In this document: positions 13,144 to 19,484 of the stretch, one piece after another | Numbering within the stretch: position 1 is the first letter of the stretch | Layout of the letters: the number at the start of each line of letters is the position of its first letter | Source: Escherichia coli | GTDB taxonomy: Bacteria > Pseudomonadota > Gammaproteobacteria > Enterobacterales > Enterobacteriaceae | Assembly (NCBI RefSeq): GCF_001677475.2 | Contig: NZ_CP015229.1 | DNA length: 64,000 nt | Strand: one strand, 5' to 3' | Notes under the pieces: generated by a model | The model's input: only the letters and a program-made list of their open reading frames with translations | Told to the model about the DNA's origin: nothing | Databases searched by the model: none | Position numbers and translations under genes: made by a program

Positions 13144-13671
13144 TTATTGATAAGTAAACGTAAACTGCACAACAGTATGGAATTCACCTGCCGTGACCGT
13201 ACCGGTAGGTGTATACATCCGTGCAGCAAGTGGGAAGGTCGCTTTTCTACTGGCCTGGTCGACGTTTACCGTCATTTTACCATTCGGGCTAATTTCCGTT
13301 ATGTGGTCATCCGTCATAATCTGCAGCGCCATCCCGGTGGCATCCCCAAGTGTATTCGCGAACTTCGTCTGGTCAACAAGATCGCTTTCCCCGGTAAACA
13401 ACGCTGTAACACTGCTTGTTGATGCAGGGCAAGAAGATAAATTCAGACTAAAGTTCTGCCACTCACTGGTATGGCCGACCGTGTCGTAATTAACGGCTCG
13501 CGCCTGCTCAAACCTGACAGTTTGATCCTTCGTTTGTGTGTCTATGACACATGCTGATGCTACCACCGTGCCATTAATGTTAATATCAGCCGCTTGGGCA
13601 GAGTGAAATGCACATAAAGGCCAGAGCGTTACCAGTAAGGTAAAAATTGTGGCACTTCGTTGAGTAATCAT
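13144..13671 (-). CDS. fimbrial minor subunit (pilin domain)
   Basis: 175 aa, signal peptide, Cys pair, C-terminal FTFTYQ donor-strand motif. Confidence 0.8.
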   Translation of the reverse strand: MITQRSATIFTLLVTLWPLCAFHSAQAADININGTVVASACVIDTQTKDQTVRFEQARAVNYDTVGHTSEWQNFSLNLSSCPASTSSVTALFTGESDLVDQTKFANTLGDATGMALQIMTDDHITEISPNGKMTVNVDQASRKATFPLAARMYTPTGTVTAGEFHTVVQFTFTYQ

Positions 13672-13685
13672 GGCGCTAGCACCTG

Positions 13686-14210
13686 TTACTGATAAGTAAA
13701 TGTTGCCTGAACCAGGCCGGTGATTGAACCAGGCATCACATTTCCTTTCGATACAGCCCGCGTACGAAGCTGAAGGTCATAGGCGTGAGAACCAGGAATA
13801 GGGGTATTATTGATTGATGAACCATTACCCAACGTTGTAGAACCATCCTGCGTAGTGAGCTCAAGAGAGAGGTTAGTTGCTGAACCAGTATTGGCGTAGT
13901 TTGTGGCAATATCACCGTCCGGCGTACCAGAGAAAGCGACGCTAAAGCTGGAGGTTGAGAGTGGGCAATTGGTTAATTGCAAAGAGAAGTCTTTCCAGGT
14001 GGATGCGCTTCCCGCAGCCGAAAGAGAATCCGCCTGAATATTATCGCCAATATTTACATTCACGGCACTATTCCCACCATTAACGACGCACGGAGATGCC
14101 AGTACTAATCCATTAATATTGATATCTACCGCATTAACGGAGGAAGCCCCCAGAAGACTGCTGGCGATAACAAATATTATAAACTTACGCTTCCATATTA
14201 TATTCATCAT
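13686..14210 (-). CDS. fimbrial minor subunit (pilin domain)
   Basis: 174 aa, signal peptide, C-terminal ATFTYQ motif. Confidence 0.8.
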   Translation of the reverse strand: MMNIIWKRKFIIFVIASSLLGASSVNAVDININGLVLASPCVVNGGNSAVNVNIGDNIQADSLSAAGSASTWKDFSLQLTNCPLSTSSFSVAFSGTPDGDIATNYANTGSATNLSLELTTQDGSTTLGNGSSINNTPIPGSHAYDLQLRTRAVSKGNVMPGSITGLVQATFTYQ

Positions 14211-14216
14211 TTTTCC

Positions 14217-15212
14217 TTAATTATATTGTACAGTAAATTGCAATGCGGATTTTACCTCGCCGGTGGTTATGTTATTAACATCGTCAATGTAATAAGCTAC
14301 TTTATATTCGGGTATTGTATAATCACCTGAGCCGATATAATTCAATGCAAAGTTATTGTTAAACTGATCGAATCCGCTTCCATCGGGGTTTTGAAATTGC
14401 ACATATACGCCTTGCGCATAACCGGTTCCGGTCTCACCGTTCATCACGCCATCCACCGAGCCGTGAGTTCCGTATAAGGCGCTAAATTTGTAAGAGATAC
14501 CCGTAATTGCGCCCGGACAATTTGTTAATGTTATTGTAGGTATTGGCGTAGCCAGTTGTGCCCCACTAACTGCATTACCGCCATAAAGTGTTGTAAGGTT
14601 CACTTCTTTTGGAGCATTTATTATGCATGGCGTCATGGTAGGCTGCGAAGAAACTCCTGAGCGTGCAAGAAATGATTTATCCGAATAAGTGCTTCCCGGC
14701 GGGTTGTGATAATTTAATGTGACGTCAGGAACAGTGACAAGAGGTCCTGGCGGTATCTGCTCTGTAAGACGAACTAATTCATACTTGATGTGTAGGTAAC
14801 CACTCTTGCTTAAACCTTCCGGGAAAGTCAGCGTGTGAGGTGCTGCTTTCGCCAAATTTGGTGTGGTATCTGTTGGGGTTGAAAAATTGAGTTGATATGC
14901 AATGCCAATACCTGGATTGCTAGTTTGATATATGGTTGCTCCGTCGCCCGTTGTTCCGACCACCGTCCCATTTACTGTAAGATCGGCATATGCACTGCCA
15001 GAACCTCCGGACGCGATATTGATCCAATAAAATTTATTCCAGTCATCAAACCAGGTTGTTCCACCTACACTCGTTGGTATGCTCCACGTTGAAAAATCAT
15101 GAGGGTAAGTGACTACCTGTGCAGTATCAGTCTGAAATTGCGATGCTGTTGTTGTTAACGGCAGTGATGCAATGCCTGAGATAAGAAAGATGATTACCCT
15201 TTGTTTATTCAT
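14217..15212 (-). CDS. two-domain fimbrial tip adhesin (F17-G/ElfG-like)
   Basis: About 330 aa with signal peptide at MNKQRVIIFLISGIASL, C-terminal pilin-like FTVQYN; position immediately after the usher as in F17/elf operons; track ORF extends to 15257. Confidence 0.7.
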   Translation of the reverse strand: MNKQRVIIFLISGIASLPLTTTASQFQTDTAQVVTYPHDFSTWSIPTSVGGTTWFDDWNKFYWINIASGGSGSAYADLTVNGTVVGTTGDGATIYQTSNPGIGIAYQLNFSTPTDTTPNLAKAAPHTLTFPEGLSKSGYLHIKYELVRLTEQIPPGPLVTVPDVTLNYHNPPGSTYSDKSFLARSGVSSQPTMTPCIINAPKEVNLTTLYGGNAVSGAQLATPIPTITLTNCPGAITGISYKFSALYGTHGSVDGVMNGETGTGYAQGVYVQFQNPDGSGFDQFNNNFALNYIGSGDYTIPEYKVAYYIDDVNNITTGEVKSALQFTVQYN

Positions 15213-15240
15213 AGCATTGTTTCCTCTTTTCTGGCTCAAT

Positions 15241-17814: not shown

Positions 17815-17843
17815 TACACATCCTTATGCAGTTAAATGGCGTC

Positions 17844-18521
17844 TTACAAAGAAGCGTTGTGTACGTCGCCTGCTGCACCGTAATCACTGATGATTGTCCA
17901 GCTTACATTTCCTGTTGTGTTGGCTGGAATTTGAAATGTCGCACTACTCATAGGAGCAACATATGTGGCATCAGGTAATGCTTTTCCGCCAATCTTGACC
18001 TGACTGAAGTTCATATAGTAAGCAGTTGGGTTGGTGACAGTGATTTGCTGTCCGCTACGTCGCCAGGTCAAATTTTTCACGACTTGTTCTGGTAATGTGG
18101 ACGAAATCTCATGTGGTCGATAAATCAATTTAATTCGCGTTTTAATGGCAATTTGCAAGGTGTTGACATTTTCCTGCTTTTCAGTTGCAGGTATCGTTTT
18201 AATATTCATCCAGTACATCGTTTCGCGATCTGTCGGCAGATTGCCGCCAGCGCGAATAATGCGCAACGCATTTTCTTCAGTGGCGCCCAGGCGGAACAGA
18301 GGGGGGGTAATAATAAAAGGGGCTTTGGCGTTGGTTTGCGGATCTCCATCGACCCATGATTGAATAAGGTAGGAGGATTTATCCGGATTTTTCAGGTGCA
18401 GAGACGTTTCTTTTTTATCGCCATTATAAATAACTCGTGTTCCTCCAACAATGACACCCGCCTGTGCAACAGAGTTGGATAATAACAATGCAGTAGCAAG
18501 AAAATAAGTCGATAATTTCAT
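17844..18521 (-). CDS. PapD-like periplasmic fimbrial chaperone
   Basis: 225 aa, signal peptide, two-domain chaperone pattern. Confidence 0.85.
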   Translation of the reverse strand: MKLSTYFLATALLLSNSVAQAGVIVGGTRVIYNGDKKETSLHLKNPDKSSYLIQSWVDGDPQTNAKAPFIITPPLFRLGATEENALRIIRAGGNLPTDRETMYWMNIKTIPATEKQENVNTLQIAIKTRIKLIYRPHEISSTLPEQVVKNLTWRRSGQQITVTNPTAYYMNFSQVKIGGKALPDATYVAPMSSATFQIPANTTGNVSWTIISDYGAAGDVHNASL

Positions 18522-18595
18522 CTCAAAAACCTTTAAAAGGTAAAACCGAGTAACTCGGTTTTACCTGACGTAATTATATTAAAATCAGGCGTATC

Positions 18596-19129
18596 TTAGT
18601 TATACGCTAACGTAAAGTTCACAGTACCATTTGCACTACCAACCGCTATGGTATCTTCTGTAGCGATATAACGTGCAAAGAAGTCCAGGTTAGTGTCGCC
18701 AGTGCTATTGAGAGCCGTGCTATCAGATTCAGTACCGAGAGGCAGCACACTACCGGAAGAATTCATGAGCTGAATTGCAACACCTTTTGCTACACCGGTT
18801 GTACCGTAATCAGTAACTTGTAAAGCATCCTGATTGATCTGATCCGGAGTACCATCGTATTTAACAGCAACATTTTTGAGCTCATTCGGGCAATTTTTTA
18901 ATACCAGTGTAAATTTGGTATTTGCAGCAGTAGTCCCAGCCGTAGCGTTAAAAGCTGTTTTAGCAATTGTGCCTAATTTCACTGTCATTGGAGATGACAG
19001 CGTACTGTTAACTTCACAGCCTGATTCAATGATATCTCCAATAAAATTTATTTTACCATCATCTGCAGAGGCGACAGAGCTAAGACCAGCGGTTGTTACT
19101 AAAACCAGAGCGGCTAGTTTGAATTTCAT
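18596..19129 (-). CDS. fimbrial major subunit
   Basis: 177 aa, signal peptide, Cys pair (ESGCEV...KNCP), C-terminal NFTLAYN. Confidence 0.85.
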   Translation of the reverse strand: MKFKLAALVLVTTAGLSSVASADDGKINFIGDIIESGCEVNSTLSSPMTVKLGTIAKTAFNATAGTTAANTKFTLVLKNCPNELKNVAVKYDGTPDQINQDALQVTDYGTTGVAKGVAIQLMNSSGSVLPLGTESDSTALNSTGDTNLDFFARYIATEDTIAVGSANGTVNFTLAYN

Positions 19130-19484
19130 TTACATTATCCTTGAGATTGCAGCAAATATGCTTACTTTGACAGTACTAAGGCACTGCCATCACTCCAGTG
19201 AATTTTAAATTCCTCAGGAAAAAATATAATATTAAAGCACGAAACGTTAAACACCTTATTTTTACTTAAATATGTTTTTAGGCATACTTAATTGATTCGT
19301 ATTGCGTATGATTGGTGGTGAAGTTTGTGAGGATTGCTGGGGGGGTGTACAATCATATTGATGATTTAAATGTGTGCTGTTGTATAAATATCTTTGGGCA
19401 ATCAAAAAGAGGCCAGTGAACAGATAAATTTGAACATAGAAGCTAAAATAATTTACTGTATTTCTTTGTTTATTGGGGAAGTGA

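Follow-up and report, generated by a model that had tools for sequence, protein, structure and literature searches.

The 64,000-nucleotide stretch of Escherichia coli DNA analysed here (contig NZ_CP015229.1 of RefSeq assembly GCF_001677475.2; hereafter, the window) carries between the core genes fabF and pabC six intact fimbrial genes, all on the minus strand (window positions 13144–19129), that make up a chaperone–usher (CU) operon. The gene fabF (11844–13085, plus strand) converges on the operon, and pabC (19485–20294, plus strand) diverges from it. In E. coli K-12 MG1655 and in strain AH04 these two genes are adjacent, with a spacing of 119 bp. The features of the locus are the following.

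12750–13085, plus strand: 3' end of fabF, imported according to informative sites.
13103–13135, no strand assigned: bidirectional intrinsic terminator hairpin (fold and sequence).
13144–13671, minus strand: minor pilin 2, 175 aa, FimG/FimF-like adaptor (NCBIfam; Pfam Fimbrial on the identical protein).
13686–14207, minus strand: minor pilin 1, 173 aa, FimG-like adaptor (NCBIfam); the open reading frame (ORF) also permits a start at 14210 (174 aa), and the 173-aa form is the one called in other assemblies.
14217–15212, minus strand: two-domain tip adhesin, 331 aa, with M16 as the probable start in a 346-aa ORF that reaches 15257.
15241–17814, minus strand: outer-membrane usher, 857 aa, intact (Pfam PapC_N, Usher, and PapC_C on the identical protein).
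17844–18521, minus strand: PapD-like periplasmic chaperone, 225 aa (Pfam PapD_N and PapD_C on the identical protein).
18535–18566, minus strand: stem-loop with U-run, candidate intra-operon attenuator or mRNA stabiliser (inverted repeat and fold).
18596–19129, minus strand: major pilin, 177 aa, first gene of the operon (NCBIfam and sequence hallmarks).
19130–19484, no strand assigned: AT-rich divergent regulatory region, 355 bp (composition).
19485–20317, plus strand: imported-type pabC, as far as the boundary with yceG, where the tract ends (informative sites).

The original prediction, made from the letters of the window, had described a six-gene CU operon with a major pilin, a chaperone, an usher, a two-domain adhesin, and two minor pilins. 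The set is complete and the order is as described. Frameshifts in the usher or adhesin genes had been named beforehand as the finding that would speak against that description; none was found in any of the six genes, whose ORFs are full length and equal in length to their orthologues. The AT-richness noted at the time has now been computed, with a GC content of 44.9% in the operon and 51–52% in the flanks. It falls to 32.7% in the spacer upstream, which had been predicted as an AT-rich region of roughly 350 bp on the pabC side and measures 355 bp (67% AT). GC at third codon positions (GC3) ranges from 0.32 to 0.47 in the operon genes, the lowest value being that of the major pilin gene (0.32), against 0.49–0.55 in the flanks. 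A 128-aa ORF at 19262–19648 and other overlapping ORFs on the opposite strand were not counted as genes; they are regarded as shadows of true genes or of the AT-rich spacer.

All the components have been placed by NCBIfam in the Fim/Lpf/Sti/Sth/Bcf group, each with a score under the curated cut-off. The usher matches NCBIfam models at E 1e-262 across residues 18–856. Its top scores are those to PRK15193 (874 bits), PRK15298 (866), LpfC (853), and PRK15294 (850), all under their curated cut-offs; together with FimD these models span 742–874 bits, and most other usher models, including SefC, PefC/AfrB, and StdB, score 260–480 bits. PRK15193 is presumably the Bcf usher model, judging by how the models next to it are numbered, and the best-scoring models are presumed to be gamma-1 in the Nuccio–Bäumler scheme. 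Among E. coli ushers, identity is 48% to that of strain C11, which is borne on an integrating conjugative element (ICE), 43% to LpfC of Lpf1, 42% to ElfC, 40% to FimD, and 39% to SfmD. Scores and identities, as opposed to a formal tree, point to a possible gamma-1 grouping, the Lpf, Elf, Fim, and Sfm ushers lying at 39–43% as opposed to 30% for MrkC and 26–28% for PefC. The C11 usher, the closest one in complete E. coli genomes (L059, NZ_CP010133.1, 1756174–1767318), belongs to a five-gene fimbrial cluster within the ICE, directly downstream of a tyrosine-type DNA invertase, an arrangement that suggests a phase-variable, ICE-borne fimbria.

The chaperone has its best match in PRK15295 (1.6e-79; 266 bits, cut-off 309), and its alignment with FimC shows that the subunit-anchoring Arg (in GGTRVIY) and Lys (in RIKLIYRP) are kept. 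For the major pilin, the best NCBIfam match is the CU major subunit PRK15289 (5e-30), followed by FimF, FimI, LpfA, and FimA; the protein has the N-terminal extension DDGKINFIGDII, the pair Cys38/80, and the C-terminal motif TLAYN. Both minor pilins are closest to FimG, at 3.4e-31 for minor pilin 1 and 1.7e-31 for minor pilin 2 (the latter with FimF next, at 2.4e-19), under the curated cut-offs and with about 109 bits to FimG models whose cut-off is 220. Minor pilin 1 has the N-terminal extension VDININGLVLA and Cys40/81, and minor pilin 2 has a signal peptide, the extension ADININGTVVA, and Cys41/81; both end in TFTYQ. The pilin hallmarks (signal peptide, N-terminal donor strand, disulfide pair, and C-terminal strand with a penultimate Tyr) are thus present in the three pilins, which also match Pfam Fimbrial, and they are shared by the pilin domain of the adhesin. 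In sum, usher domains, a PapD-like chaperone, pilin hallmarks, and a two-domain tip adhesin have all been found, and the operon is a standard classical CU fimbrial system with a textbook assembly pathway and no new mechanism. As known for this family, the subunits would be exported through Sec, held by the PapD-like chaperone, and polymerised by the usher through donor-strand exchange. The predicted order of assembly is the two-domain adhesin at the tip, then the two FimG/FimF-like adaptors, and last the 177-aa major pilin, which would form the rod.

The distribution of the operon in E. coli was surveyed in 5,426 complete RefSeq genomes, a set that presumably includes the complete genomes used for the 2013 catalogue of CU types considered below. 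A megablast of positions 12800–19800 against this set recovered the fabF end only, and no genome covers the operon. With the usher gene, blastn returned only short matches of 64–76% identity, corresponding to lpfC, fimD, elfC, sfmD, and an unnamed usher; and the first ~324 nt of pabC had no megablast match in any of these genomes. This comparison, which had been proposed together with the original prediction, supports its claim that the operon is missing from the fabF–pabC junction of K-12, and extends the absence to all 5,426 complete genomes. Exact-protein look-ups, on the other hand, found the operon genes in public databases under generic names (e.g., ANO88405–ANO88411), with identical proteins in further contigs that number from a few dozen to a few hundred; among the source labels are E. 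coli, Escherichia ruysiae, Escherichia sp. MR, Escherichia sp. 93.0816, and "unclassified Escherichia." The fabF–operon–pabC context was seen in all 24 inspected contigs with an identical usher, and no examined carrier has genes other than the six fimbrial ones between fabF and pabC. The E. coli carriers that were compared (L056–L058) are 99.2–100% identical to the window in each compared segment, which fits a single acquisition followed by clonal spread. These close relatives were obtained by exact-protein look-up in a larger assembly collection, and not by the species-level scan (one genome per bacterial species), which gave 54 usher relatives. The best identity in that scan is 67%, in Citrobacter braakii, the sole one of the 54 that shares the fabF–pabC locus.

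The origin of the operon can be read from its surroundings. The 12.8 kb to its left are 99.1% identical to ordinary E. coli chromosomes, and the host is therefore E. coli sensu stricto; the core flanks of the window as a whole are 99.1–99.6% identical to E. coli. At about position 12700 the divergence from AH04 climbs from 0–1% to 3–5%. Breakpoints were located by means of three-way informative sites, in which the window was compared with E. coli AH04 and with the non-coli Escherichia carrier L067. On the left, the crossover falls in the interval 12731–12764, the window being of E. coli type up to 12731 and of L067 type at 12764–13064 (19 of 22 sites). Within fabF, the segment 12700–13085 is 94.7% identical to AH04 and 98.2–98.4% identical to the carriers L067–L071, and the last codons encode FKRV before the stop, as compared with FKKI in K-12. 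On the right, the tract stops at 20317/20318, with L067-type sites at 20108–20317 and E. coli type from 20318. PabC itself (269 aa, intact) reflects this structure: residues 1–110 are 54.5% identical to the E. coli protein, 57% to that of Salmonella, and 53% to that of Citrobacter, and over the last 109 residues the identity to E. coli PabC is 92.7%. Its pyridoxal phosphate (PLP)-lysine motif, GIKHLN, is kept.

Six loci (L067–L072) are taken on sequence grounds to represent another Escherichia species. Their core flanks are 92.2–96.7% identical to the window (holB as low as 87.7%), and their operon, upstream region, and 5' half of pabC are 99.2–99.5% identical to it (the upstream region 19130–19484 by itself, 99.2% in non-coli Escherichia carriers). 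An operon so much closer than the core genes around it indicates a recent inter-species transfer; and since the donor-type single-nucleotide polymorphisms sit in an E. coli background, its direction was into E. coli. The horizontal acquisition proposed earlier from base composition therefore holds, the identity of the operon to non-coli Escherichia being far above that of the core flanks. In the genome of one of these loci (L071; GCA_000208585.2, AEMF01000001.1), the gene calls for pabC, fabH, tmk, and the major pilin are split or shortened, and the rest of the operon is intact; this could be an assembly error or genuine decay.

A different way of arriving at this site would be as cargo of a mobile element (pathogenicity island, ICE, phage, or plasmid segment) through site-specific integration at the fabF–pabC junction. 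The low GC content would agree with it, as would the ICE-borne position of the closest E. coli usher (48%), beside a tyrosine invertase; according to the catalogue of E. coli CU fimbriae (PMC3559732), islands or plasmids carry many of the accessory fimbriae of this species. However, no integrase, insertion sequence (IS) element, transposase, tRNA, or flanking or att-like direct repeat was found in or around 12600–20400, where direct repeats are short and at chance level; the closest plasmid relative of the usher is just 58% identical; the junctions lie inside homologous core genes, with no discrete insertion point; and six fimbrial genes are the whole content of the site in each carrier examined. 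Taken together, these points make a mobile element the least probable of the origins considered, scarcely credible at this locus. The sequence points instead to homologous recombination in the flanking genes as the mechanism, with no island insertion and no mobile element involved. The operon does lie between fabF and pabC, as had been predicted, but the simple insertion also predicted gives way to a tract that spans from the interior of fabF to ~20317 and replaces pabC.

The same site is occupied in other genera. In Citrobacter braakii ATCC 51113, the same six genes stand in the same order and orientation between fabF and pabC, with identities of 67% for the usher, 64% for the chaperone, 56% for the major pilin, 56–63% for the minor pilins, and 42% for the adhesin. 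Salmonella enterica assemblies have an orthologous six-gene operon at fabF–pabC, with an adhesin 53% identical; no match was found between this operon and a named Salmonella fimbrial cluster in two Salmonella fimbriome papers, which do not mention these two flanking genes. A third example is the metagenomic contig L073 (ERZ27268173 k141_80647), with the same fabF–operon–pabC arrangement, which comes from another genus because its core genes are only 71–88% identical to the window. Its adhesin and minor-pilin genes are 74–80% identical to those of the window, and its usher, chaperone, and major-pilin genes 67–70%, which hints at separate histories for the tip genes and the assembly module, with modular exchange of the former. 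On this comparative evidence, fabF–pabC is an old and patchily kept home of the operon in Escherichia, Salmonella, Citrobacter, and their relatives; thus, "accessory" fimbrial operons can be positionally conserved across genera and missing from nearly all sequenced E. coli.

With such diverged orthologues at one site, ancestry of the site in the whole family is plausible, and the operon might be a vertical relic, ancestral in Escherichia, lost in almost all E. coli, and retained here without transfer. Vertical descent is at odds with an operon 99.2–99.5% identical to that of non-coli Escherichia whose flanking core genes differ by 3.4–7.8%, with the sharp switches of informative sites within fabF and at the pabC/yceG boundary, and with the short fabF–pabC junction and different 5' half of pabC of all 5,426 complete E. 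coli genomes; it is considered highly improbable. The locus is very probably explained as a complete and apparently functional classical CU operon, related to the Fim/Lpf/Sti/Sth/Bcf-Elf group, that was imported on ~7.6 kb of DNA by homologous recombination from a non-coli Escherichia already carrying the operon at this place. According to the sequence comparison, this E. coli lineage received the tract (~12750–20317) from a donor of a cryptic-clade or E. ruysiae-like lineage, in which the operon already stood at fabF–pabC, and the incoming DNA took the place of pabC, of the fabF terminator, and of the 3' end of fabF.

The protein that would decide what the fimbria binds is the tip adhesin. 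Its start is probably M16 at 15212 (331 aa), preceded by the ribosome-binding site AGAGGA and called likewise in other assemblies. It comprises an N-terminal receptor-binding domain (~24–190) and a C-terminal pilin domain (~192–331), and its mature N-terminus is without the donor-strand pattern of pilins. Searches by sequence gave little: in Pfam there was no lectin-domain match and just a weak C-terminal Fimbrial match (E 0.05), in NCBIfam two sub-threshold pilin matches, among PDB sequences (phmmer) a chance match only, and no detectable similarity to ElfG, FimH, LpfD, or the sfm adhesin (annotated as fimH in L063). The statement that the lectin domain is uncharacterised is in agreement with these results. 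Pfam PF22003 (MrkDrd) is matched by 1 of 24 homologues at E<=0.001 and by 11 of 24 at E<=0.1, and by the window protein not at all; a sequence profile of the adhesin weakly reaches MrkD1P (PDB, E 0.005) and Abp2D (E 0.013) via a PGIGI loop. The AlphaFold2 model is well defined (pLDDT 90.2 for the full protein, and 95.2 when the N-terminal domain is modelled by itself). In Foldseek, the full model gave E 1e-9 to CupB6 and FimH across the full length, and it resembles the two-domain tip adhesins CupB6, FimH, FocH, LpfD, and PapG. The N-terminal domain is closest to GafD (F17c-type), UclD, and AtfE, with comparison figures of 10.8, 10.4, and 10.2, followed by MrkD1P (9.1), Abp1D (9.0), LpfD (8.9), and FimH (7.4). 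As modelled, the receptor-binding domain has a GafD/F17G-type lectin fold, so that a glycan of a host or of the environment is the most likely ligand of the fimbria. This domain (~24–190), for which the model is good, could be taken directly into glycan-array or structural studies.

Tropism for hosts and tissues is set by fimbrial adhesins. The family of this adhesin comprises 31 clusters from Escherichia, Salmonella, Superficieibacter, Enterobacter, Citrobacter, and Pluralibacter, and its alignment (32 sequences, 39–93% identical to the window adhesin) has 36 invariant positions, among them the loop residues T97, N99, G101, and G103; P100 and I104 are nearly invariant. A wider proposal can be built on this family, although it is rather doubtful: it would be a separate, uncharacterised branch of fimbrial lectins with a specificity of its own, marked by the T-x-N-P-G-x-G-I loop, in what would be an ancient organelle by which environmental and animal-associated enterobacteria adapt to their niches; the recent import from a cryptic Escherichia clade would then have conferred a new host or tissue tropism on a clonal E. 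coli lineage, and the linked pabC and the region upstream of it would be needed for continued expression of the essential downstream genes tmk and holB.

As for transcription signals, the original prediction had placed a bidirectional terminator on the fabF side of the operon. A real and strong hairpin is indeed found at 13103–13135, in the gap that separates the stop codon of fabF from that of the last pilin gene, flanked by an A-run and a T-run. Its stem, of 9 bp with GC pairs and extended to 14 bp, has the sequence AAAAAGCGAAACAC-AAT-GTGTTTCGCTTTTTTT; the fold has a dG of -19 kcal/mol and a z of -5.47, and none of 200 shuffles was as good. The hairpin on the fabF side of AH04 is different (GGTCCGC..GCGGGCC), and by its sequence the terminator of the window is part of the imported DNA and not the fabF terminator of K-12. 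The sole Rfam match, to the sRNA family RmaA at 13094–13177, over this hairpin, was sub-threshold (30.7 bits, gathering score 57, E 0.026) and was judged to be due to chance. A second hairpin (18535–18566) lies between the major pilin and chaperone genes, with a 13-bp stem (a perfect 14-nt inverted repeat) and a U-run (z -3.9). Hairpins of other sequence occupy the same position in three diverged orthologues, those of C. braakii, Salmonella, and L073. We infer that this element is an attenuator or mRNA stabiliser that raises the ratio of major pilin to assembly proteins, so that expression would probably be biased to the rod subunit.

In the AT-rich upstream region, there are sigma-70-like sites in both directions, one towards the operon (-35 at 19250, -10 ending at 19223) and the other towards pabC (19325–19353). 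There are no GATC sites in this region, and no invertase gene and no fimS-like or long inverted repeats were found near the operon. Phase switches of the Pap or Fim type are therefore unlikely, given the lack of GATC upstream and of a nearby invertase gene. The region is probably silenced by H-NS under laboratory conditions. A further possibility is that the cluster is silent or decaying, intact through its recent arrival, never expressed, and without a role in the host. An AT-rich upstream region is typical of H-NS-silenced cryptic fimbriae, the operon is without a dedicated regulator gene, and it is very rare in E. coli. Against a silent cluster stand the six full-length ORFs in every inspected carrier, across several species and genera, the 36 positions of the adhesin that are invariant at identities as low as 39%, and the conserved position of the attenuator hairpin; the conservation of ORF length, adhesin positions, and hairpin position indicates purifying selection in the donors. 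A silent cluster is thus regarded as somewhat unlikely.

Several observations weigh against a functional operon acquired in one clean import. Regarding function, which is read from sequence alone, many E. coli CU operons are cryptic according to the catalogue (PMC3559732). The promoter call is a consensus match, in a segment (12950–19650) with 11 promoter-like sites, fewer than the 15.2 expected in shuffles; and H-NS-motif matches amount to a single weak one, with silencing deduced from AT content alone. Regarding the import, a short E. coli-like patch at 19961–20103 speaks for a history more mosaic than one clean event, and the operons of L067–L072 differ by 0.5–0.8% from that of the window. 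Finally, species-representative genomes of the named Escherichia species gave no close operon match, which implies that the operon is variable in those species too. An operon imported by recombination and apparently functional is still the preferred reading. The gain of an intact and uncatalogued fimbria by an E. coli lineage, with a cryptic Escherichia clade as the source, exemplifies how an adhesin repertoire can change by inter-species recombination anchored in core genes. In addition, this lineage can be recognised cleanly by the operon together with its linked pabC allele, which likewise mark introgression from non-coli Escherichia.

Other parts of the window also differ from common E. 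coli chromosomes. Positions 30367–30966 diverge by 6–8% from AH04 over 600 bp, in a background of 0–1.5%, and an indel-rich stretch of 130 bp relative to AH04 lies at 31767–31903; these patches suggest further small recombination imports in the thiK/nagZ-ycfP-ndh region. A lambdoid prophage adjoins potC at 49920–64000, with ORFs of 372 aa (49920–51038, minus strand; probably the integrase) and 823 aa (51338–53809). The records that match this stretch annotate a phage integrase, an exonuclease, and a DUF968 protein, and at least 80% of it is covered in only 1 of the 5,426 complete E. coli genomes (08-00022, NZ_CP013662.1), at 96.4% identity.

The CU fimbriae of E. coli have been catalogued into 38 types, defined by usher phylogeny and chromosomal locus (Wurpel et al., 2013, PMC3559732). 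In the text of that catalogue, fabF, pabC, and yceG are not mentioned, and by the criteria of usher phylogeny and locus the operon does not correspond to any type catalogued there. A full-text literature search on fabF, pabC, and fimbrial terms gave no paper naming it. The earlier description as "F17/Elf-like" can be retained in part: the likeness to F17 is limited to the modelled fold of the adhesin, and the likeness to Elf extends to gene order and not to the equivalog scores. In the Elf (YcbQRSTUVF) and Bcf systems, the order is the same, that is, major pilin, chaperone, usher, large adhesin-like subunit, and two small pilins (elfADCG-ycbUV). However, the usher scores 874 bits to PRK15193, with a cut-off of 995, and is 42% identical to ElfC; the BcfE, BcfF, and BcfA models score 28–53 bits against cut-offs of 238–247; no second chaperone gene (ycbF/bcfG) lies between 13085 and 13144 at the operon end; the adhesin shares no detectable sequence similarity with ElfG; and the Elf locus lies between ssuE and pyrD instead of fabF and pabC.

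The F17 operon consists of four genes, f17A-D-C-G, whereas the one in the window has six, with two minor pilins after the adhesin. The adhesin is 10–13% identical to F17G/GafD and UclD and has no match to the Pfam F17G lectin, and the operon is chromosomal at a core locus, unlike F17 and Ucl, not on a plasmid or pathogenicity island. The distinction from F17 rests on adhesin and gene count rather than on the usher; an F17 usher was sought via the plasmid collection, in which the best E. coli plasmid usher (39%) belonged to an Afa/Dr-type cluster. With respect to MrkD, Abp1D, and Abp2D, the window adhesin itself has no PF22003 match, and the Mrk and Abp ushers belong to a different sub-clade (MrkC, 30% identical). 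With type 1 (Fim) and Lpf fimbriae, the operon shares a FimC-like chaperone (44%), a FimD- and LpfC-like usher (40% and 43%), FimG/FimF-like adaptors, a two-domain tip adhesin, and the same assembly logic.

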